NCBI GenBank assembly: GCA_016658885.1
Contig: GCA_016658885.1_4807.1
Source: a phage
Reading direction: 5' to 3' (one strand)
DNA: 64,000 nucleotides
The notes under the pieces were generated by a model that was given only the letters and a program-made list of their open reading frames with translations, had not been told where the DNA came from and searched no databases. This document shows, piece after piece, positions 22,068 through 36,597 of the stretch; position 1 is the stretch's first letter, and each line of letters opens with the position of its first letter. A program made the position numbers and the translations under genes.

Positions 22068-22135
22068 TGAAGGCATAATTAAGTTATCCCAAACGGGGAA
22101 TATAAAATAAACTAATTTATTTAAGGACTGTGAAC

Positions 22136-22975
22136 ATGGCCGAAGCAATCAAAGTATTATCTAAAGAAGAAAAACAAGCAGCTGCAGCAGAACGTCGTCG
22201 CGTGGCTGAAGAAAAACGTCTGGCTAAAAAGAAAGAAGCCGAAGAAAAACGCCAGAAGCGTGAGCAGGAAAAACAAGCCAAGCGTGAAGAAGCTGCGCTG
22301 AAACGCAAGCAGGCTGCTGATGAGAAGGCTCAGAAGCGTGCTGAAGAAGCAGCTAAGAAAGCTAAAGAGCGTGCAGAAAAGGCTGCTGCTAAGAAAGCAG
22401 AGCGTGAAGCTGCTAAAGCAGCGAAAGAAATCGAAAAGGCAAAGGCTAAAGAAGAAGCCAAGCGCCTGAAAGCTGAACAAGCTGCTGCTAAGAAAGCAGA
22501 GCGTGATCAAGCACGTGCTGCAGCGAAGGCCGAAAAAGAGAAGGCCAAAGAAGAAGCTAAAGCGAAACGCAAGGCAGAGCGTGAAGCTGCTAAGATTGCG
22601 GCTAAAGAAGCTGCAGAACAGCAGAAAGAACAGCGTAAGAAAGAAGCTGAAGAACGTCGCAAAGCCATCGCAGAACGTAAGGCTGCTAAAAAGGCAAACG
22701 GTCAGCGTCGTGCAAAAGCAACCCACTTCATCTACACTGGCAATGGCCTGAGCCAGCCGCAAGAGCATTCCACCCGTGGACGCGTTCTGGCTGCGATCAA
22801 AGAAGGCGAAGTTGGCGTGGCGCAGTCTATCGATGAGCTGGGCGAAAAAGTTAAAGATCAACTGTTTGGCGCTTCCGTTCGCTCCTACCTGAGCAAGCTG
22901 GAAGAGATGGGCCACATCGAGTTTGTCGATGTTGAATCCAACGAAGATGCCGAAGACAGTGATCAAGCGGAATAA
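22136..22975 (+). CDS. Lys/Glu/Ala-rich low-complexity protein with globular C-terminal domain (possible DNA-binding protein)
   Basis: About 190 residues of AEEKR/KAEREAAK-type repeats, then a non-repetitive C-terminus; ATG at 22136 after AAGGAC. Confidence 0.6.
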   Translation: MAEAIKVLSKEEKQAAAAERRRVAEEKRLAKKKEAEEKRQKREQEKQAKREEAALKRKQAADEKAQKRAEEAAKKAKERAEKAAAKKAEREAAKAAKEIEKAKAKEEAKRLKAEQAAAKKAERDQARAAAKAEKEKAKEEAKAKRKAEREAAKIAAKEAAEQQKEQRKKEAEERRKAIAERKAAKKANGQRRAKATHFIYTGNGLSQPQEHSTRGRVLAAIKEGEVGVAQSIDELGEKVKDQLFGASVRSYLSKLEEMGHIEFVDVESNEDAEDSDQAE

Positions 22976-23002: not shown

Positions 23003-23029
23003 GACCCACACTTGTTGTGGGTCTTTTTT
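23003..23029 (+). terminator. rho-independent terminator
   Basis: GACCCACA-cttg-TTGTGGGTC followed by TTTTTT. Confidence 0.7.
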
Positions 23030-23107: not shown

Positions 23108-24103
23108 ATGAACATGAAACAACCTGTAATGATTATCGGCGGCGGATTGGCAGGACTTATCACAGCGTGTCACTTCCCGAACTCTATTGTGTACGAAGCA
23201 GGGGAGCGAGCGCAACAGCACAAGGCGCTGCTACGCTTTCGCGGCGAAGAAGTAAGCCGTATTACCGGAATCCCTTTTAAGGCCGTGACAGTTGACAAGG
23301 CTGTGTATTTTCGCGGCAACTACTACCACGACCATTGCCCAATCAACCTTGCCAATATGTATTCCATGAAGGTCACCAATCAATTTGGCAGCCGTTCAAT
23401 CATGAAGCTTAAGACTGCAACGCGTTATATTGCGCCTGACGACTTTTATGATCAGCTTGTCGACAAACTGGGTGACCGCATATTCTTTAATACTCCGGTC
23501 GATACTCTTTGCGGCTATAGCGAGACGCCAATCATCAACACGTCGCCGCTGCCAGTCATGATGAAGCTGGCTGGTATTGATCAGAATCTTGACTTTTCAT
23601 TCGATAAAGCAAACATTCGCGTTTACCGCTTTAAGATTAAACGTAAGTGTGAACTTTATCAAACCATTTACTTTCCTGACTACTCCGTCAGAACTTACCG
23701 CGCTTCAATCACTGGCGACACATTGATCATTGAAACAATTCCTTTGGTTAGCGTAAGTGAAGCCGCAGTTGAAGCCGCTGGCGGCATTACTCGTTACCGT
23801 GACATTAAGTTGCGTGCAGAAGTTGACGAAGTGTTGACGGCCTTTGGTCTATCATGGAGTGACATCGCTCTCGAAGAAGTTGAGAAGGTCGACCAGAAGT
23901 ATGGCAAGATTGTCGACATTCCGAAAGACTTGCGACACGCTCTACTCCTACAACTTACCATGGATTTGAACGTGTTTAGTGTCGGTCGCTTTGCTACCTG
24001 GCGAAACATTTTGCTTGATGACGTTGCTCATGACCTTGTTGAAGTTGAAAAACTCATCAAAGCAAATAACTATCAAAAATTTGCTTATATTGCTAATAAA
24101 TAA
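23108..24103 (+). CDS. FAD/NAD(P)-binding Rossmann-fold oxidoreductase (possibly UDP-galactopyranose-mutase-like)
   Basis: N-terminal VMIIGGGLAGLITA dinucleotide-binding motif; C-terminal FSVGRFATWRNILLDDV resembles the UGM C-terminal GRLAEYKY segment (from memory). Confidence 0.5.
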   Translation: MNMKQPVMIIGGGLAGLITACHFPNSIVYEAGERAQQHKALLRFRGEEVSRITGIPFKAVTVDKAVYFRGNYYHDHCPINLANMYSMKVTNQFGSRSIMKLKTATRYIAPDDFYDQLVDKLGDRIFFNTPVDTLCGYSETPIINTSPLPVMMKLAGIDQNLDFSFDKANIRVYRFKIKRKCELYQTIYFPDYSVRTYRASITGDTLIIETIPLVSVSEAAVEAAGGITRYRDIKLRAEVDEVLTAFGLSWSDIALEEVEKVDQKYGKIVDIPKDLRHALLLQLTMDLNVFSVGRFATWRNILLDDVAHDLVEVEKLIKANNYQKFAYIANK

Positions 24104-24169
24104 TTTGCTTTCTGCTTCAATGGGCGTATACTTTAATCATTGAAGCAGAACTCATAAGAGGAAACGAAA

Positions 24170-24616
24170 ATGAAACGCATCACTGGAATCGCTCTTGCCG
24201 CAACTGCTATTCTCGGCACCATGTATATGGAAGCGACTGAAGCCGCTGTCCGTACTTCCGATTCAATCGCCGTGTATGATTGCGAAGCGATGGACGGTAA
24301 AACCGCAGCAACCACTGGCGCAACTATCACGGCTTACATCGGCGTGAACGAGCAAGAAGGTCTGAATATTCAGATTCAAGGATTCACAGGGAAAGGTGCC
24401 AACCGTACTCCGTGGATGCAGCGTTTCACTTTCGTTCAGCCTCGTTCAACTGGCGGCTTTATCAACTTGATTGGTGAAAACCGTTCTGGTGCAGAAATCT
24501 TTACATCAATGAGTTCTAATAATGAACCAAAGAAAAGTTTTCAGTTGCTTTATAACGCACAATTCGTTTATCATTGCACCTTCTCTGGTGATCAGCAACT
24601 AGTGAATTACCGTTAA
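24170..24616 (+). CDS. secreted/periplasmic protein (148 aa)
   Basis: N-terminal signal-peptide-like MKRITGIALAATAILGTMYMEATEAA. Confidence 0.5.
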   Translation: MKRITGIALAATAILGTMYMEATEAAVRTSDSIAVYDCEAMDGKTAATTGATITAYIGVNEQEGLNIQIQGFTGKGANRTPWMQRFTFVQPRSTGGFINLIGENRSGAEIFTSMSSNNEPKKSFQLLYNAQFVYHCTFSGDQQLVNYR

Positions 24617-24629
24617 TAGGATAATTAAA

Positions 24630-25433
24630 ATGAAAGTTGAATTAATTCGATACACCCAAGATGCACTTGACCTTTTGCTGGAAACAAAGAACACGCGCAT
24701 GACTGGTAAGCCCGTCTCTGAGATGACAGAATCAGAGAAGCAAGAGCACTGGCGCTATATGCTTGACACCATCAAGTCACCTTTTGACTTTGTGGACTAT
24801 ATCTTTGATATCACTGATGTATCAAAGAACATGACCCATCAGATGGTACGCACACGCACAGGCGCATATCAAGAACGCACCAGCCGCGCGCAGGAGTCAT
24901 CTGCTTTTGATGCGATTCGTCCGAAAGCGTTTGAGTATGACGACCCTGACAGGGTTATCGGCGAGCGAATCGACGAGCAGCGTTTGAAGTTGGCTAACAC
25001 ATGGGACGACGCCATGGCGACCATTGACGCCCTATACCAAGAACTTCGCGCGGCTGGCGCAGAGATTCAAGATGCACGTGCCGTTTTGCCTTCTAATATG
25101 CAAACTCATATCATGGCAAAGTTCAACTTGCGCACGCTGCAACAGATGGCGTCAAACCGCTTGTGCACGCGCACACAAGGCGAGTATCAAGAAGTATTTC
25201 GCGCAATGGTTGCGGAAGTCCTCAAGGTGCACCCGTGGGCTAATCCTTTACTACAGCCGCAATGCATCGGTATGGGTAAATGCGCGTTTCCTCGTCACGG
25301 CAAAGCCCATTGCCCTTGGTATCGTGATTGGATGGATACTACGGCACAGCAAGAAGAGTTGCGCATCCAGTTTTGGAATGCGATGCCAATCACCAACAAT
25401 CCAGTTGCTAAAGATGGAGTATCAAAAGGATGA
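24630..25433 (+). CDS. ThyX-family (flavin-dependent thymidylate synthase-like) protein with variant active-site motif
   Basis: MKVELIRYT start; VRTRTGAYQERTSR aligns with ThyX RHRxxSYxExSxRY; ARAVLPSNMQT...NLRTLQQMASNR...EYQ parallels the ThyX C-terminal block. Confidence 0.65.
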   Translation: MKVELIRYTQDALDLLLETKNTRMTGKPVSEMTESEKQEHWRYMLDTIKSPFDFVDYIFDITDVSKNMTHQMVRTRTGAYQERTSRAQESSAFDAIRPKAFEYDDPDRVIGERIDEQRLKLANTWDDAMATIDALYQELRAAGAEIQDARAVLPSNMQTHIMAKFNLRTLQQMASNRLCTRTQGEYQEVFRAMVAEVLKVHPWANPLLQPQCIGMGKCAFPRHGKAHCPWYRDWMDTTAQQEELRIQFWNAMPITNNPVAKDGVSKG

Positions 25434-26302
25434 GCATTAAAAACAGCGAAATCTTAAACGTATTCGACCTTGACGGAACGCTGTTTGATGATCGTTGGCG
25501 CTTAGACCGCATTAAGGTGGCAGGTCCGTTGTCAGACTATGATGATTATCACAGCGGTATTGGTTATGATCAGTTCTATCCTCACATTGCATCAGCAGTA
25601 GAGTCGGCATCTCTTCGCGGTGAGGCGGTTGAATATTGGACTGCAAGGCCAGAAAAATACAGACAAGTGACTTTTGAACGTCTGGACAATGTTTTTCCTT
25701 TTGATGAATTTACAATCAAGATGAGAGACTATGGCGACAAACGTACATCAACTATTATGAAATCTGCATGGCTATCGCACGCTTTGCGGCACGGCGATTA
25801 TCGAATCATCAATGTATTCGACGACCGACAAGACGTACTCGCGCGGATGCAAGATGAAGCATTGTATTATAATTCCGTTGCTCAAAATAAAATCGCTTTT
25901 ACATTTAATCTTTGCAAGGCAGGTGAAGTGGTGCAACAATTAGCAATTGATCCAAGCGCAACAGGGCAAGAAGAGACTAAGGCTGTGGAAGTTGAACAAT
26001 CTCCGGCAACTGCCGCCGATATTCTTGATGCAATGGCAGCAACCTTCCGTGAGCGCAACGCTGTCTATGGCGATAACGCTGTGATGGTAGGTCAGGTTAT
26101 GCAAGTGCTTTTCCCTAATGGCGTGACGTTGAAAACGCCGGAAGACTACCACATGTGGCATCTGTTCGAGCTTAAGATTGTCAAGCTTACACGCTTCGCA
26201 ATCAGCGGCCTGAAGCACGAAGACTCTATACACGATGATGGTGTTTACAGCGCCATGTGTGAACGTCTTGTTAACACCCATAATATTAATTTCAATAAAT
26301 AG
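25430..26302 (+). CDS. HAD-superfamily phosphatase fused to an uncharacterised C-terminal domain
   Basis: Motif I VFDLDGTLFDD, later VFDDRQD; C-terminal 110 aa (AADILDAMAATFRERNAVYGDN...) unassigned. Confidence 0.55.
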   Translation: MSIKNSEILNVFDLDGTLFDDRWRLDRIKVAGPLSDYDDYHSGIGYDQFYPHIASAVESASLRGEAVEYWTARPEKYRQVTFERLDNVFPFDEFTIKMRDYGDKRTSTIMKSAWLSHALRHGDYRIINVFDDRQDVLARMQDEALYYNSVAQNKIAFTFNLCKAGEVVQQLAIDPSATGQEETKAVEVEQSPATAADILDAMAATFRERNAVYGDNAVMVGQVMQVLFPNGVTLKTPEDYHMWHLFELKIVKLTRFAISGLKHEDSIHDDGVYSAMCERLVNTHNINFNK

Positions 26303-26348
26303 TTTACTTGTGCGTTTCGATGAGTTATATTTATCTCATCGAAACGAA
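26303..26348 (+). promoter_or_regulatory. sigma70-like promoter with conserved downstream motif
   Basis: TTTACT, 17-bp spacer, TATATT, then TCATCGAAACGAA; same architecture at 33602..33648. Confidence 0.5.
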
Positions 26349-26367
26349 GTCCAAAAAGGATAAATAA

Positions 26368-27051
26368 ATGAAAAAAGTAATTGTTGTAACTGGCTGCAAT
26401 TCCGGTCTTGGTAAATCCATTTTTGACACCCTTGGCGCTTACGGTCATGAAGTTGTCGGTATTGATTTGGAGAACGGCTATGACATCCGTAACGCGAAAC
26501 AGATGAAAGAGCTTCTCTCTCAATACGACGTAGAAGGCTTGATCAACTGCGCTGGCGTCAACTCCAACAACTGGTTCGAAGATGTTAACTACGAAGAGTT
26601 CAATCGCGTTATGCACACCAACGCCTTCTCTTTCGTCAACACGACTCAGGCCGCGCTGAAAAGTCTTATTGACAACAAAGGTTTTGTGATCAACATCGTT
26701 TCCAACGCTGCGCATATTCCTATGACGTCCAGCTTGTGTTATAATGCTTCCAAGGCTGCTGCGCTCATGATTAGCAAGCAGATGGCTCACGAGCTTACGC
26801 CTAAATACGGGATCACGGTATTCTCTATTAGTCCTAACAAGCTACGTGGTACTGGCATGTCCAAACAGATTGAAGATGCTGTTTGCGCGACTCGCGGCTG
26901 GACTCCTGAATACGCTGCTGAATACCAGAAAAAGGCACTGATGAATGGATTGGAGACTGAGCCGCAAGTAATTGCTGACTTCATTCGCCATATCTTAATT
27001 ACGGGCGCATGGCGCTTTATGTCTGGTACTGATATTCCATTCGGTAAATAA
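26368..27051 (+). CDS. short-chain dehydrogenase/reductase (SDR)
   Basis: VVTGCNSGLGKS cofactor motif, NCAG, catalytic YNASK. Confidence 0.75.
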   Translation: MKKVIVVTGCNSGLGKSIFDTLGAYGHEVVGIDLENGYDIRNAKQMKELLSQYDVEGLINCAGVNSNNWFEDVNYEEFNRVMHTNAFSFVNTTQAALKSLIDNKGFVINIVSNAAHIPMTSSLCYNASKAAALMISKQMAHELTPKYGITVFSISPNKLRGTGMSKQIEDAVCATRGWTPEYAAEYQKKALMNGLETEPQVIADFIRHILITGAWRFMSGTDIPFGK

Positions 27052-27147
27052 ATCACGAAAATTTGAGGTTGTCACACCCGCTCCTGAAAAGAAACAGGAC
27101 GAAGACGACACAGTAATTAATCAATAATATTTAATTAAGGAAACAAA

Positions 27148-27699
27148 ATGCCACATTTTAAAATTGAACAAATCGCCCTGTCAATTCCAGGTGCTCAGCG
27201 CGCACAGAATTTCCTGGCTAAAATCGGCCTGACAGAATGGTTCCATGATCACGTTGTTGCTACTGGTCGCGTATTTGAAGCTGATGTCTTTAAGGGTCAG
27301 CGCGGCGATTGCACCAACGAAGCTGACTTGCGCTTCAACTATCAGGCTGGCAACGGCACCGATGGCGGCGCTGGTAAGCCTCTTGAGCTTGAAATTCTTG
27401 ACTATACAAAAGGTTGCAACTGGATTCACGAAAACATCGAATACATCGATGCGCACGACAATCAGGTTAGCCATCTTGGTATGCACGTGACTGCCGCTGA
27501 ACTTGCTGAATGGCGCAAGTTCTTTAAAGAAGAAGGCATTCAGGTTGCGCAGGAAGTTGTGACCGACTCTCACACCAACCCAAACATTGCTGGTCAGCGT
27601 CGTTACAACTATGTAATCTTTGATACTCGTGAAATCATCGGTGTCGACCTTAAATTCATCGTACGGTTGAATCAAGACGGTACTCCGTACACTGTATAA
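27148..27699 (+). CDS. hypothetical protein, possibly glyoxalase/VOC-like fold
   Basis: ORF track; weak beta-alpha-beta pattern only; tentative. Confidence 0.35.
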   Translation: MPHFKIEQIALSIPGAQRAQNFLAKIGLTEWFHDHVVATGRVFEADVFKGQRGDCTNEADLRFNYQAGNGTDGGAGKPLELEILDYTKGCNWIHENIEYIDAHDNQVSHLGMHVTAAELAEWRKFFKEEGIQVAQEVVTDSHTNPNIAGQRRYNYVIFDTREIIGVDLKFIVRLNQDGTPYTV

Positions 27700-27715: not shown

Positions 27716-27741
27716 GGCCGTCCTAATGGGCGGCCTTTTTG
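27716..27741 (+). terminator. rho-independent terminator
   Basis: GGCCGTCC-taat-GGGCGGCC followed by TTTTT. Confidence 0.65.
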
Positions 27742-27753
27742 TAGGAGGCCAAT

Positions 27754-28296
27754 GTGTTATTTCTCCCTTATGACTTCGAAACAACCGGATTAACCGTGCA
27801 CCCGAAAGCGCCGCTTGGGATGCAGCCGCGCCCTATTGAATTTGCAGGTCTGTTGACAGACGGCAAAGAGATTCTTGAAACTTTTGAGTTCATAATTAAT
27901 CCTGAAATTGTGATTGAAGAAATCATCACAAAGATTACCGGATTAACAAATGAAGACCTTGAGTGCAATCCACCATTCATCAATTTCGTTCCGCAGCTAA
28001 AAGAAATATTCAAGAAGACGGATGCAACTATCGCGCACAACCATGCATTTGATAAAAACATTCTTGATTATGCACTACAGCGCGAAGGACTTACACTTGA
28101 TGATGTTAATTTCCCAGAAATAAACATCTGTACAGTTGAGCAAACCTTGCCTATTTTTGGTCGAAGAGTTAAGCTTCAAGAGCTGTATGAATTATATTTC
28201 GGAAAATATGAACAGAAGCACCGTGCATTAGACGACGTAATATTACTGCACAAAGTCTGCCAACAAATTGGCGTATATGACATCTGGAGTAAATAA
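27754..28296 (+). CDS. DnaQ-like 3'-5' exonuclease (DEDDh)
   Basis: YDFETTG, HNHAFDKNIL, HRALDDVILL; GTG start after AGGAGG. Confidence 0.75.
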   Translation: MLFLPYDFETTGLTVHPKAPLGMQPRPIEFAGLLTDGKEILETFEFIINPEIVIEEIITKITGLTNEDLECNPPFINFVPQLKEIFKKTDATIAHNHAFDKNILDYALQREGLTLDDVNFPEINICTVEQTLPIFGRRVKLQELYELYFGKYEQKHRALDDVILLHKVCQQIGVYDIWSK

Positions 28297-28757
28297 TGCT
28301 TGACATAGACTATTTGCACGAGCATTTCGATTATTTTGATGGCCAGCTTATAGTCAAAAAGAAGCCCTATAAATATAGAACTCAGGTTGGTGAACCAATA
28401 GGCTATCTTCATGGAGATAGATTGAGATGTAATCTTCACGGAAGGAAATGGTTTGTTCACCAGTTGATATTCTTCTATCATCATGGCTATTTGCCAGCTT
28501 ATGGAATCGACCATTGGGATAGGAATCCACTAAATAACAGAATCGAAAACTTAAGACCTTGTGACGCATCATCAAATGCTCAGAATATCGAAAGGTCTGA
28601 TGAAGTAGGAATAATCTTGACAATCAGCGGCACTTGGGAAGCGTCCATATCAATTAAAGGCAAAAAGAAGTACCTTGGAACTTTCAAGGAAAAGCACGAA
28701 GCCATTGAAGCGAGAATACGTGCAGAAAAAGACCACTACACCCACTACTGGAGGTAA
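28296..28757 (+). CDS. HNH homing endonuclease with AP2-type DNA-binding domain
   Basis: H..DRNPLNNRIENLR...NAQN HNH core; C-terminal SISIKGKKKYLGTFKEKHEAIEAR. Confidence 0.7.
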   Translation: MLDIDYLHEHFDYFDGQLIVKKKPYKYRTQVGEPIGYLHGDRLRCNLHGRKWFVHQLIFFYHHGYLPAYGIDHWDRNPLNNRIENLRPCDASSNAQNIERSDEVGIILTISGTWEASISIKGKKKYLGTFKEKHEAIEARIRAEKDHYTHYWR

Positions 28758-33662: not shown

Positions 33663-33926
33663 ATGGTACGCATCCTTGAACGTTACAAAAATGAAGCTAC
33701 TGGCGCAATCGCGTTCAAACGTCTTTTGGTCAAAGAAATTGACGGTCTGTTCCGCGTTGTAAAAGAGTTTGATTATGGCAACGTTGCTGGGGTGAATACC
33801 GTCATTATGCCTGGCATCAAGGCATATAAAACCTTAAAAGGCGCTGAGAAGGCTTTGGCGGCTTGGAAACCTGAACGTTATCAAATGACCCGTGTTGAAG
33901 GTCTAATGCAAGAAGGTAAAATATGA
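33663..33926 (+). CDS. hypothetical protein (87 aa)
   Basis: ORF track. Confidence 0.5.
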   Translation: MVRILERYKNEATGAIAFKRLLVKEIDGLFRVVKEFDYGNVAGVNTVIMPGIKAYKTLKGAEKALAAWKPERYQMTRVEGLMQEGKI

Positions 33927-34480
33927 GTAATATTAATTGGGAAGATGATTTGCCGCAGGTCGCTCCTGAGAGCATTCAAGAGCGCCTTGCGCGCTTAGTG
34001 TCTGAACTGGCAGAACGCCAAGAAGCTTTGACAAAGCTTGAAGATGAAGCTGATGTGCAAAAGCAGCGCATCAGTGAAATCAAAACTGTTCTGCTTCCTG
34101 GCGTTATGGATGAGCTTGGCGTGTCTGAAATCAAGCTTGAGGACAAGACCAACATCAAAGTCGAGTCAAAAGTTAATGCTTCAATTAAGAAAGAAAATGA
34201 ATTGAAGGTATTCGATTGGCTTGTCAACAACGGTTACGGCGGCTTGATCAAGTCCAGCGTCACAGCTGAGTTTGGTCGCGAAGAAATCGAGCAAGCGCAA
34301 GAGATTGTTGCCGCGCTGCGTGAAGACGGTGTTGAAGCCACGTTGAAACAAGGCGTTCATTCTGCTACACTGAAGTCATTTGTAAAAGAACAGCTGGAAG
34401 CGGGTAATCCAGTTAGTGAATATATTAGCGTTTTTGAGTATAAAGAAGCTAAAATAACCTTGCCTAAAAGCAAAAAGTAA
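33923..34480 (+). CDS. hypothetical coiled-coil protein (185 aa)
   Basis: ORF track; heptad-like charged N-terminus. Confidence 0.5.
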   Translation: MSNINWEDDLPQVAPESIQERLARLVSELAERQEALTKLEDEADVQKQRISEIKTVLLPGVMDELGVSEIKLEDKTNIKVESKVNASIKKENELKVFDWLVNNGYGGLIKSSVTAEFGREEIEQAQEIVAALREDGVEATLKQGVHSATLKSFVKEQLEAGNPVSEYISVFEYKEAKITLPKSKK

Positions 34481-34539: not shown

Positions 34540-35400
34540 ATGTCTAAGAAAGAAACTACCGAAGTTGCAGTGAAAAACACCCAGATGTCCGCTATGGCTG
34601 ATTTTGTCGATATGACCGATTTTGGCGCTGGTTTTGAAGGTGCCGATGCCGACGCTTATGCCATTCCTTTTATCGTCGTACTGCAAAAGATGTCTCCGAT
34701 GGTCGACGAAGATGATCCAAAACACGTGCCTGGCGCAAAAGCTGGTATGTTGTACAACACCGTTACTGGTGAATTGTATGACGGCAAGAAAGGTGTGCAG
34801 ATCATCCCTTGCGCATTCAAACGCACCTTCATTCTTTGGGGCGGTCGCGAGTCCGACGATAAAGGCTTTAAAGGTGAATTCACCAAAGAGCACGTTGATG
34901 CAGAAGTCGCGGCAGGCCGCGCTGTTGAGATCAACGGTAAGGTATTCGTGCCGGACGAAAACGGCAAGGTGCACGAGAAGAAATCTCCTTACTACGCAGA
35001 TACACGTAACCACTTCGTGATTCTGTTGAACGAAGAAACTGGTGAATTTGGTAGTGCAATGCTGTCTCTGACTTCTTCCATGATCAAGCCGTCTCGCATG
35101 CTGATGACCGCTCTGCAGCAGAAGAAAGTTCAGACTCCGCAGGGTCTGAAAACTCCGCCGACCTTTATGAACATCGTTCGCATGGGTACTGCGTCTCAGT
35201 CCAAAGACGGCAACACCTGGTCCGTCCTGAAGTTTGAGCTGGAAGGTCTGGTGCAGGACAAAGGTCTGTATGAAGTCGCCAAGGCATTCCACAACGACGT
35301 AGTTGGCGGTAACGTTAACATTGACCGCAGCAAGCAGGAAGAAGCAAGCGGTGCCGCTGGTCCTGTCAATGAAACTCCGACCGACGCAGAAGAGTTTTAA
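34540..35400 (+). CDS. putative single-stranded DNA-binding / annealing protein
   Basis: Acidic C-terminal tail ending DAEEF, as in SSB-type tails; position within replication module; tentative. Confidence 0.4.
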   Translation: MSKKETTEVAVKNTQMSAMADFVDMTDFGAGFEGADADAYAIPFIVVLQKMSPMVDEDDPKHVPGAKAGMLYNTVTGELYDGKKGVQIIPCAFKRTFILWGGRESDDKGFKGEFTKEHVDAEVAAGRAVEINGKVFVPDENGKVHEKKSPYYADTRNHFVILLNEETGEFGSAMLSLTSSMIKPSRMLMTALQQKKVQTPQGLKTPPTFMNIVRMGTASQSKDGNTWSVLKFELEGLVQDKGLYEVAKAFHNDVVGGNVNIDRSKQEEASGAAGPVNETPTDAEEF

Positions 35401-35973: not shown

Positions 35974-36597
35974 ATGAACCAGATTTATGCAAACATTCGC
36001 CAGTGGGCTTCTGACCGTAACATCATCCAAGGTTGCGACCTTAAGGACCAATACCCGAAGCTTATCAGCGAGTTTGGGGAGTTAACCGATCACGTTGATC
36101 AACTCCATGACCTTGTGTTCTTCGACCCTGAAATTGGATATACAGAGCAGGCCATCTGTGACTTGCAAGCTGCAATCAAGGACGACATTGGCGATTGTCT
36201 TGTTGTGTTGACCATCCTGGCGGCGCAAAACGGTACTGAAATCGAAAACATTAATGGCGGCGGTTGTGCTGATAAAGGCGCTCACCCTCATTCATTCATC
36301 CTTCGCCTGGCAAAGACTCTCGGACGGCTTGGTGATGCTATTGCTAAGAATCAGACCATGGATATTGACGTCACCATCATGGCCGCAGTCGATTACCTTT
36401 CCGGCGTAGCTCATGATTATGGCCTTCGCTTATCCGACTGTGCGCAAGCGGCCTACGAAGACATCAAGGACCGCAAAGGTGTCATGTACAACGGAACGTT
36501 CATCAAATCTACTGATCCAGCTTATGAGCACTCCTGCAAAATGGTAAAGAAGCTGGAACTTGAAGACCGTGTGATCAGAGAAGTTACAGGACAATAA
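35974..36597 (+). CDS. MazG-like nucleoside triphosphate pyrophosphohydrolase
   Basis: EFGELTDHV and DDIGDCLVVLTILAAQNG helical motifs. Confidence 0.5.
   Translation: MNQIYANIRQWASDRNIIQGCDLKDQYPKLISEFGELTDHVDQLHDLVFFDPEIGYTEQAICDLQAAIKDDIGDCLVVLTILAAQNGTEIENINGGGCADKGAHPHSFILRLAKTLGRLGDAIAKNQTMDIDVTIMAAVDYLSGVAHDYGLRLSDCAQAAYEDIKDRKGVMYNGTFIKSTDPAYEHSCKMVKKLELEDRVIREVTGQ

Follow-up and report, generated by a model that had tools for sequence, protein, structure and literature searches.

A conserved phage gene cluster around a divergent ThyX-family protein as a candidate pathway for TG-specific thymidine hypermodification

Organization of the cluster and its genomic setting

The phage DNA analyzed here (contig GCA_016658885.1_4807.1 of assembly GCA_016658885.1, 64,000 nucleotides, hereafter referred to as the window) carries at positions 23108-27699 six co-directional open reading frames (ORFs) on the plus strand. 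These genes, named p1 to p6, encode a flavoprotein, a small protein with a signal-peptide-like N-terminus, a divergent ThyX-family protein, a HAD phosphatase fused to a DUF6378-like domain, a short-chain dehydrogenase/reductase (SDR) and a protein of the vicinal oxygen chelate (VOC) superfamily, in this order. It is the strongest candidate for the gene set behind a sugar-like decoration of thymine in TG context, which would shield the DNA from bacterial restriction enzymes. At the nucleotide level, the region shares 93-96% identity with Wifcevirus myoviruses infecting E. coli and Shigella (WFH, ECML-117, FEC19 and the BASEL isolates Bas98 and Bas99), and five of the six genes are labelled as hypothetical or in generic terms in those records.

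The six genes lie between two strong intrinsic-terminator-like hairpins. The upstream terminator (23003..23029, plus strand) is formed by a hairpin at 23003-23023 (GACCCACA-loop-TGTGGGTC) followed by TTTTTT, and the downstream one (27716..27741, plus strand) by a hairpin at 27716-27735 (GGCCGTCC-TAAT-GGGCGGCC) followed by TTTTT; a terminator is also annotated at the equivalent site in the Pbunavirus LMA2. Intergenic distances from p1 to p6 are 66, 13, -4, 65 and 96 nt, the negative value corresponding to a 4-nt overlap between p3 and p4. On the 3' side, the cluster is followed by genes for a DnaQ-like exonuclease, an HNH endonuclease and the alpha subunit of DNA polymerase III (PolIII-alpha). 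The layout described in the initial annotation, six consecutive plus-strand genes between two terminators and directly upstream of an exonuclease-polymerase block, is therefore correct for all the ORFs and for both hairpins.

The ThyX-like protein

The p3 gene (24630..25433, plus strand; 267 aa) encodes a divergent ThyX-family flavoenzyme, whose match to Pfam Thy1 (PF02511; E=6.1e-30) covers profile positions 2-191 of 191. Its score against TIGR02170 is 81.4 bits, below the equivalog cut-off of 87.9 bits, and the motif RTRTGAYQERTSRA stands where the ThyX signature reads RHRxxSxxxxSxRY, with RHR converted into RTR, as anticipated when the gene was first described as a ThyX-family member with a non-canonical motif. 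Alignment of p3 to ThyX proteins in the PDB, with residues numbered as in the Thermotoga maritima enzyme (TM0449), revealed that R78, R80, R90, R147, R165, R174 and Q75 are retained, and that six other positions are substituted (H53 by Ile, H59 by Phe, H79 by Thr, S88 by Thr, Y91 by Ala and H178 by Arg). The same pattern extends over the 66 distinct sequences surveyed in its clade: the dUMP-binding arginines R78, R80, R90, R147 and R174 are invariant or nearly so (65-66 of the 66 members), as are R165 and Q75; position 53 is always Ile, position 59 always Phe, position 79 never His and position 91 always Val or Ala, and position 178 is Arg in 65 of 66. In the T. maritima enzyme, H53 is the stacking partner of the folate, and H79 makes contact with the flavin adenine dinucleotide (FAD). 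Since the arginines are kept and the histidines linked to folate and NADPH are lost, the substrate pocket of p3 looks conserved and its cofactor handling looks altered, as judged from the alignment.

Apart from the RTR motif, the six replaced residues and the sub-cut-off TIGR02170 score, p3 differs from TM0449, with which it has the Thy1 fold and the dUMP/phosphate-binding arginines in common, by an extra C-terminal region carrying a four-cysteine motif (C179, C212, C218 and C228). This motif is complete in 34 of the 66 clade members and wholly absent from the remainder, the cysteines being gained or lost together, and may constitute a metal or iron-sulfur site. Cysteine-rich tails like that of p3 are also present in ThyX-like proteins of Gordonia and Mycobacterium phages and in one ThyX-like protein of an archaeal virus.

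The flavoprotein

The first gene of the cluster, p1 (23108..24103, plus strand; 331 aa), is assigned to phrog_4828, a family annotated as of unknown function, and its product has no sequence match in Pfam, NCBIfam or the PDB. An AlphaFold model obtained with an alignment of 32 homologs as input is confident (pLDDT 86), and the protein carries an N-terminal GGGLAG Rossmann dinucleotide-binding motif and an invariant glutamate, E30. On the basis of the model, p1 is predicted to be an FAD enzyme of the amine-oxidase/protoporphyrinogen oxidase (PPO)/UDP-galactopyranose mutase (UGM) fold, a similarity that fails to separate UGM from protoporphyrinogen and amine oxidases. The possibility of a true UGM was rejected at the sequence level: none of the 33 family members matches a GLF Pfam model (PF03275), even at E<=10, a profile search of the PDB returned no UGM, and hhalign against a sequence taken to be E. 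coli Glf aligns the GxGxxG Rossmann segment only. Hence, of the early suggestion of an FAD/NAD-binding Rossmann protein, possibly UGM-like, the likeness to UGM holds at the level of the fold and finds no support in the sequence. Unlike UGM and the protoporphyrinogen/amine oxidases (GR2 flavoproteins), with which it has no sequence-level kinship, the p1 family is found only in phages and displays its own invariant Arg/Lys-rich motifs, and p1 is 35-140 residues shorter than its top hits.

The phosphatase fused to a DUF6378-like domain

The product of p4 (25430..26302, plus strand; 290 aa) combines a PNKP-type HAD phosphatase (residues ~1-165), a variable linker and an alpha-helical DUF6378-like domain (~190-290). 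The phosphatase part matches HAD_PNKP (PF25109; E=8e-8) with 33 bits against a cut-off of 27.6, and its HAD motifs are all in place (DLDGT, T71, K111 and DD131-132), with D13, D15, T71, K111 and D131-D132 invariant in 34 homologs. No other part of the cluster is as strongly conserved as the C-terminal domain, of ~100 residues. Its relation to DUF6378 (PF19905) is a weak one: the family matches 13 of 17 homologous C-terminal domains, with a best E of 1e-4 and reported bit scores below the cut-off of 27.1, and does not match the domain of p4 itself. In this way, a protein initially depicted as a HAD phosphatase fused to an unassigned domain keeps that architecture and acquires a tentative name for its second half. 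HAD_PNKP is the sole recurrent fusion partner of the DUF6378-like domain among 111 relatives, and a library-wide search that recovered 1605 DUF6378-like relatives found them either free-standing or fused to HAD, with no other recurrent partner. A profile search of the domain against the PDB gave spurious matches only, and a literature search on DUF6378 and Nmad1/DUF1599 yielded nothing informative on function. DUF6378 may resemble DUF1599/Nmad1 and the MazG-like pyrophosphatases.

The SDR, the VOC protein and p2

Downstream of p4, p5 (26368..27051, plus strand; 227 aa) encodes a classical SDR (adh_short, PF00106, E=1e-31), in whose translation the cofactor motif TGCNSGLG, the NCAG motif and the catalytic S...YNASK can be read; it is thus predicted to be an active-looking enzyme, in line with its early designation as an SDR reductase. 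The PHROG and genome-record annotation regards it as a FabG-like auxiliary metabolic gene ("moron"). The last gene, p6 (27148..27699, plus strand; 183 aa), encodes a VOC-superfamily protein closest to methylmalonyl-CoA epimerases. The paired beta-alpha-beta-beta-beta modules of the fold, first proposed as a possibility, are present, and the Glyoxalase_4 score, 13.5 bits, stays below the cut-off of 27. Q8, E80, E82, H109, H113 and H142 are among the invariant residues. In Bas99, the SDR and VOC genes are separated by an additional ORF of 171 nt (Bas99_0047; L001 9953-10123), in place of which the window has a 96-nt gap (27052-27147).

Searches of Pfam, PHROGs and NCBIfam with the product of the remaining gene, p2 (24170..24616, plus strand; 148 aa), found nothing. 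The N-terminal segment of this protein, judged by eye, resembles a signal peptide, which agrees with the secreted protein initially described. Its inclusion in a pathway, on the contrary, is improbable, as p2 occurs in only three of the 80 related loci described below and is restricted to Wifcevirus. It is probably a lineage-specific insertion (moron) outside the pathway.

Conservation and recurrence of the module

Five of the six genes, all but p2, form a conserved phage module. The p1 alignment, searched against IMG/VR, recovered 80 loci on diverse viral contigs, in which p1 identity ranges from 99% to 37% and the order p1, ThyX-like gene, HAD::DUF6378 gene, optionally SDR followed by VOC, exonuclease and PolIII-alpha is kept. 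The ThyX-like gene is present in 75 of these loci (the remaining ones being incomplete), DUF6378 in 67, the SDR in 49 and the VOC gene in 46. Among the 56 loci that span the relevant interval, 39 have both SDR and VOC, 15 have neither and only two are discordant; as they are gained and lost together, these two genes behave as a functional pair. Such an arrangement is far beyond chance. What the relatives display is accordingly a shared module, and not a canonical ThyX without a common operon, the situation that the initial annotation had set against its own proposal.

The Pbunaviruses LMA2, F8 and 14-1 represent the type lacking SDR and VOC, with a three-gene core (p1, ORF65; ThyX-like, ORF59; HAD::DUF6378, ORF57) between the same flanking genes. 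Across Pseudomonas phages, p1 and the ThyX-like gene are always found together (292 records each). Less than 6 kb of the Rhizobium jumbo phage RHph_Y65 holds p1, a ThyX-like gene and a gene for a HAD+DUF6378 protein that carries the erroneous label of phosphoheptose isomerase. Directly 5' of its DnaE gene, the Microbacterium siphovirus Sparcetus has five consecutive genes, for an FAD oxidoreductase, a HAD phosphatase, an SDR sharing 32% identity with p5, a homolog of p6 (34%) and a protein with DUF6378 (49%), its ThyX-like gene being located 8 kb away. The flavoprotein of this phage, gp55, was considered as a p1 homolog and is treated as analogous or possibly homologous, since hhalign gives a probability of just 44%, confined to the N-terminal half.

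Some of these loci contain additional genes. In 14 related contigs (e.g., L056 8156-8524), the ThyX-like gene is separated from the HAD gene by one for a DenV-like (T4 endonuclease V) pyrimidine-dimer DNA glycosylase, which has no counterpart in the window; in Sparcetus, gp54 (L092 4234-4782), directly 5' of the flavoprotein gene, weakly matches Pyr_excise (E=0.0016). The DenV-like protein could be a DNA-binding, base-flipping partner, or merely the product of a repair gene. An NrdR-like ORF that overlaps neighbouring genes also recurs between p1 and ThyX in some loci.

Thymidine adducts in Pbunavirus and restriction resistance in Wifcevirus

The presence of the core in Pbunavirus links the cluster to a DNA modification whose chemistry has been reported. 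According to a 2025 preprint on END nucleases, the DNA of the Pbunaviruses F8 and 14-1, formerly considered unmodified, contains thymidine derivatives of 362 and 390 Da, which replace about a quarter of the thymidines, in TG context (PMC12191111). In the authors' interpretation, one is derived from a tetrose sugar alcohol and one from a cyclised aldopentose; enzymes with TG in their site fail to cut the DNA of both phages, in which no known modification genes were found (PMC12191111). By our own arithmetic, 362 and 390 Da correspond to 5-hydroxymethyl-dU joined to a tetritol or to a pentose with loss of water. On the Wifcevirus side, a 2025 report described these phages as resistant to all the restriction-modification (RM) systems tested except EcoP1_I, "without any known protection mechanism". 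The literature search found no paper that assigns genes to the Pbunavirus modification.

The three-gene core occupies an equivalent genomic position in the two genera, and the footprint described below implies the same TG context in the window. They differ in that the Pbunaviruses lack SDR and VOC, for which reason the Wifcevirus adduct is expected to be a different one, and in that the adduct has been shown chemically in F8 and 14-1, the signs of a modification here being the indirect ones of the footprint and the RM phenotypes. A scan of other larger ORFs of Wifcevirus and Pbunavirus revealed no glycosyltransferase, kinase or other recognizable enzyme. The recognizable non-replicative enzymes common to both are the flavoprotein, the ThyX-like protein, the phosphatase fusion and a MazG-like pyrophosphatase encoded outside the cluster (35974..36597, plus strand; weak Pfam MazG match, E=0.023). 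The latter is conserved in Pbunavirus (F8 gp049), is annotated in Bas99 and F8, and may be an associated nucleotide-pool enzyme, as a candidate only.

Comparison of F8 with 14-1 was also considered as a route to the gene that determines sugar specificity. Identity amounts to 97% for p1, 94% for the ThyX-like protein, 81% for HAD::DUF6378 and 57% for ORF70, so that only the last two stand out, and the comparison is indecisive. ORF70 is the most divergent of the replication-region proteins compared (L006 13894-15090, 398 aa, in F8; L007 15997-17301, 434 aa, in 14-1) and has a weak CxxCxGxG zinc-finger-like match; it is possible that it determines the differing adducts, or something unrelated.

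A TG-linked footprint in the genome sequence

A G follows 26% of the T residues in the window. If the T of TG is modified, restriction sites that contain or abut TG are predicted to escape the selection that removes other sites. In the window, where avoidance of restriction sites is extreme, 15 of the 64 hexamer palindromes are absent (AgeI, BglII, SmaI, SacII, AvrII, PvuI, EagI, XhoI, SacI, NaeI, NheI, BamHI, ApaI, KpnI and BspEI), and none of them contains TG/CA. Strong depletion, defined as an observed/expected ratio below 0.25, affects none of the 16 hexamer palindromes with TG/CA versus 21 of the 48 without it (Fisher p=0.0006); the corresponding figures are 3/16 versus 16/48 in lambda, and 1/16 versus 14/48 in F8. 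Among other sites in the window, the BsaI site GGTCTC is missing (26 expected), CCCGG/CCGGG likewise counts 0, and CTAG occurs 33 times versus 134 expected.

The clearest trace is left on GATC, which is itself depleted (102 observed versus ~256 expected). At 101 of these 102 sites a T immediately precedes GATC on at least one strand (TGATC/GATCA), whereas 48% of the sites would be expected to have none (p=1.5e-27). Consistently, TGATCA occurs 48 times, and AGATCT, CGATCG and GGATCC do not occur at all. A T stands before GATC in 73% of cases versus 36% before GAT followed by any base other than C (odds ratio 4.9). T-flanked sites also predominate for EcoRI (9 of 10), EcoRV (6 of 6) and AatII (12 of 12), and no flank bias was seen at SalI, HpaI or BstZ17I sites in the window. 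The EcoP1 sequence AGACC is present at 88 sites, most of them without TG/CA overlap. The T-flanked sites and the EcoP1 sites free of TG/CA match the resistances reported for Wifcevirus and its sole sensitivity.

The GATC footprint is strong in relatives infecting Pantoea and Serratia, weaker but significant in F8 and 14-1, and absent in lambda and P2. Because a base outside the recognition site matters only if it is chemically special, the footprint constitutes indirect evidence of a TG-linked modification. It is silent on which genes make that modification.

Three words are over-represented in the window. AAGCTT (HindIII) occurs 58 times, against 18 expected from composition, 25 from an order-1 model and 38 from an order-3 model (e.g., at 303, 2811, 23405 and 26183); these sites are dispersed and have no common flanking consensus, so they do not represent a repeated regulatory motif. 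GTCGAC (SalI; 29 versus 12 expected) and TGATCA (BclI; 48 versus 24) are enriched as well. The window further contains 18 ApaLI, 27 FspI and 10 NdeI sites, all of which include TG, and 25 HpaI sites.

A proposed pathway for thymidine hypermodification

The conserved module, the Pbunavirus core together with the TG adducts, the RM resistance of Wifcevirus and the TG footprint support the early idea of a nucleotide- or base-modification pathway that goes beyond plain dTMP synthesis. On balance, it seems probable, by a narrow judgement, that the cluster without p2 is wholly or partly responsible for a sugar-type hypermodification of virion-DNA thymidine that is specific for TG, the Wifcevirus counterpart of that of Pbunavirus; the step from the genes to the modification is one that we infer. 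A particular route can be outlined more tentatively, as a possible but doubtful one, in which neither ThyA nor a 5-hydroxymethyl-dU (5-hmdU) DNA kinase would take part, and a ThyX-derived enzyme and a flavoprotein of the oxidase/UGM fold would build the C5 substituent, or open it up, by covalent flavin (N5-iminium) chemistry, with the phosphatase::DUF6378 protein and the SDR/VOC pair finishing the sugar.

The following division of labour is conceivable for such a pathway. The C5 flavin chemistry would fall to p3 and p1, which would create or capture the electrophilic 5-methylene/5-hydroxymethyl pyrimidine intermediate that a normal ThyX reduces to methyl. A phosphorylated sugar or polyol unit would then be attached to the one-carbon position at C5, and the PNKP-type HAD phosphatase with its DUF6378 domain would take off the phosphate. 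In phages having both SDR and VOC, keto-reduction by the former and epimerisation by the latter might tailor the sugar, giving rise to an adduct unlike those of F8 and 14-1. The modified T beside G would block restriction enzymes whose sites contain or abut TG.

Such a pathway has both parallels and differences with known ones. The pathways of phages M6, ViI, SP10 and phiW-14 likewise place a bulky substituent on the C5-methyl of a sequence-dependent subset of thymidines and protect against restriction (Lee et al. 2018; PMC8989533). The C5 one-carbon unit is the attachment point in these phages as in the proposed pathway. The machinery is another one: those systems employ a ThyA-family dUMP hydroxymethylase, a 5-hmdU DNA kinase, aGPT-Pplase transferases and tailoring by pyridoxal phosphate (PLP) or radical S-adenosylmethionine (SAM) enzymes, none of which was detected in the annotated genome or the scanned ORFs. 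In particular, no ThyA-family hydroxymethylase, 5-hmdU DNA kinase or aGPT-Pplase was found in the cluster, in the annotation of Bas99 or in the larger ORFs searched against Pfam and PHROGs, small ORFs not being part of that scan. The cluster contains instead a ThyX-family enzyme, a flavoprotein of the oxidase/UGM fold, the HAD::DUF6378 fusion, the SDR and the VOC protein. The products differ too, the Pbunavirus adduct being sugar-like and those of the M6/ViI/SP10/phiW-14 type derived from amino acids or polyamines.

In kinetoplastids, base J is made after replication at specific sites by the JBP1/2 hydroxylase and the JGT glucosyltransferase, which convert thymine into glycosylated 5-hydroxymethyluracil. 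The outcome would be alike, but here no iron/2-oxoglutarate (Fe/2OG) dioxygenase or glycosyltransferase was found, and oxidation would be flavin-dependent. Since the defining enzymes of M6, ViI, SP10 and phiW-14 and of base J went undetected, the cluster is not counted among those systems. That a homologue of thymidylate synthase can be recruited for the first step of a sugar-type pyrimidine hypermodification has a precedent in the arabinosylation of 5-hydroxycytosine in RB69 and DLP3, where the flavin species bound to the homologue has been analyzed (PMC13326640). That enzyme, however, is a ThyA homologue acting on dCMP, followed by recognizable glycosyltransferases, and ThyX is unmentioned in that work (PMC13326640). 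The proposed pathway would thus represent a new enzymatic variant of phage thymidine hypermodification.

Several observations weigh against a TG-specific hypermodification made by the cluster. TG specificity needs an enzyme that reads sequence at the DNA level, and none of the five proteins has a recognizable DNA-binding or base-flipping domain. In F8 and 14-1, p1 and p3 are nearly identical despite the different adducts, which implies that the determinant of sugar identity may lie elsewhere. The Rhizobium and Microbacterium phages and one contig bearing p1 lack the GATC footprint, which could also have arisen in other ways, for example if a phage avoids the target of its own nuclease. Gene order beside replication genes could in part reflect family-level synteny. 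Moreover, the RxR-type motif and the cysteine cluster of p3 are shared by ThyX-like proteins of Gordonia and Mycobacterium phages, in which the p1 search found no match. The deviant ThyX motif is therefore weakened as a marker of the pathway; it is not specific to it and, taken alone, is no proof of a new function, and p3 may simply be a thymidylate synthase.

This last thought leads to a nucleotide-pool module, an unlikely but serious alternative, in which p3 would be a divergent thymidylate synthase that boosts dTMP in a phage that replicates very fast and lacks other pyrimidine enzymes, p1 a flavin reductase or redox helper and HAD::DUF6378 a nucleotidase or pyrophosphatase, any modification being due to genes located elsewhere. 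In its favour, p3 retains all the ThyX substrate-binding arginines, and ThyA, dUTPase, dCMP deaminase and ribonucleotide reductase are all missing from the annotated genome. The constant association of p1 with the ThyX-like gene and the location of the cluster in the replication region fit this explanation as well, and so does the fact that the F8 and 14-1 adducts differ and p1 and p3 hardly do. Left unexplained by it are the co-varying SDR and VOC pair and the set of flavoprotein, HAD, SDR, VOC and DUF6378 genes without an adjacent ThyX gene in the Microbacterium phage. It also runs against the replacement of the folate/NADPH-linked histidines in 66 of 66 clade members and the lack of other enzyme-like candidates for the modification among the scanned ORFs.

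Another alternative is a cofactor pathway, in which the SDR (pteridine-reductase-like), the VOC protein, the phosphatase/pyrophosphatase and the flavoprotein would start from a pterin or flavin precursor of the host and supply p3 with a reduced cofactor or with a one-carbon carrier other than folate. The SDR family includes pteridine reductases, the folate-stacking H53 is Ile in 66 of 66 clade members, and a HAD and MazG-like pair could conceivably remove the phosphates from a triphosphorylated precursor. Nevertheless, this appears improbable, given that the cluster contains neither a GTP cyclohydrolase nor any other pterin enzyme, p5 and p6 bear no sequence evidence of kinship with pterin enzymes, the ThyX-like proteins of Pbunaviruses belong to the clade of p3 although SDR and VOC are missing there, and the TG footprint and the known modification are left unused. 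The least probable view, that of a mixed collection in which p3 and p4 are replication-associated and p1, p2, p5 and p6 act on host metabolism or the envelope as auxiliary metabolic genes or morons, with no common pathway, can invoke the FabG-like annotation of p5 and the clearly lineage-specific insertion of p2, but it clashes with the conserved order and the SDR/VOC co-variation across very divergent phages, the recurrence of the module in an actinophage and the cluster being a single terminator-bounded unit.

To return to TG-specific hypermodification, Pbunaviruses are among the phages most widely used for therapy against Pseudomonas aeruginosa. The cluster provides a small set of candidate genes (five, three of them common to Pbunavirus) for the Pbunavirus adducts and for the restriction resistance of Wifcevirus. 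The more tentative route outlined above would be the first flavin-based pathway of DNA hypermodification. If the proposal is true, it would extend the known means by which phages rewrite their DNA to flavoenzyme chemistry, would explain the restriction resistance of therapeutic Pbunaviruses and of Wifceviruses as well as the ability of modification-dependent END nucleases to target Pbunaviruses, and would give functions to phrog_4828, DUF6378 and the p6 VOC family, which have hundreds to thousands of metagenomic members. It might also offer enzymes for the production of sugar-decorated DNA. The flank-dependent GATC footprint, for its part, could serve as a cheap in-silico marker to predict TG-type modification in uncultured phages.

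Neighbouring genes

Just 5' of the cluster, a gene at 22130-22975 (plus strand) encodes a 281-aa protein whose first ~185 residues are nearly pure Lys/Ala/Glu, histone- or coiled-coil-like, and whose C-terminal ~85 residues are shared with Pbunavirus ORF66, annotated as a putative structural protein. On the other side, the HNH endonuclease gene (28296-28757, plus strand) is of the HNH_3 homing type and separates the exonuclease gene from that of PolIII-alpha. As these two genes are directly adjacent in Bas99, the HNH_3 gene is a mobile insertion; the 994-aa, TTG-start polymerase ORF listed for the window overlaps it, so the true start of the polymerase is probably farther downstream. Among the replication/lysis genes, two proteins that are also kept in Pbunavirus match DUF7307 (33923-34480, plus strand; E=2e-37), a Pfam family named after Pseudomonas phage Pam3 gp33, and Pam3_Gp34 (34540-35400, plus strand; E=4e-86).

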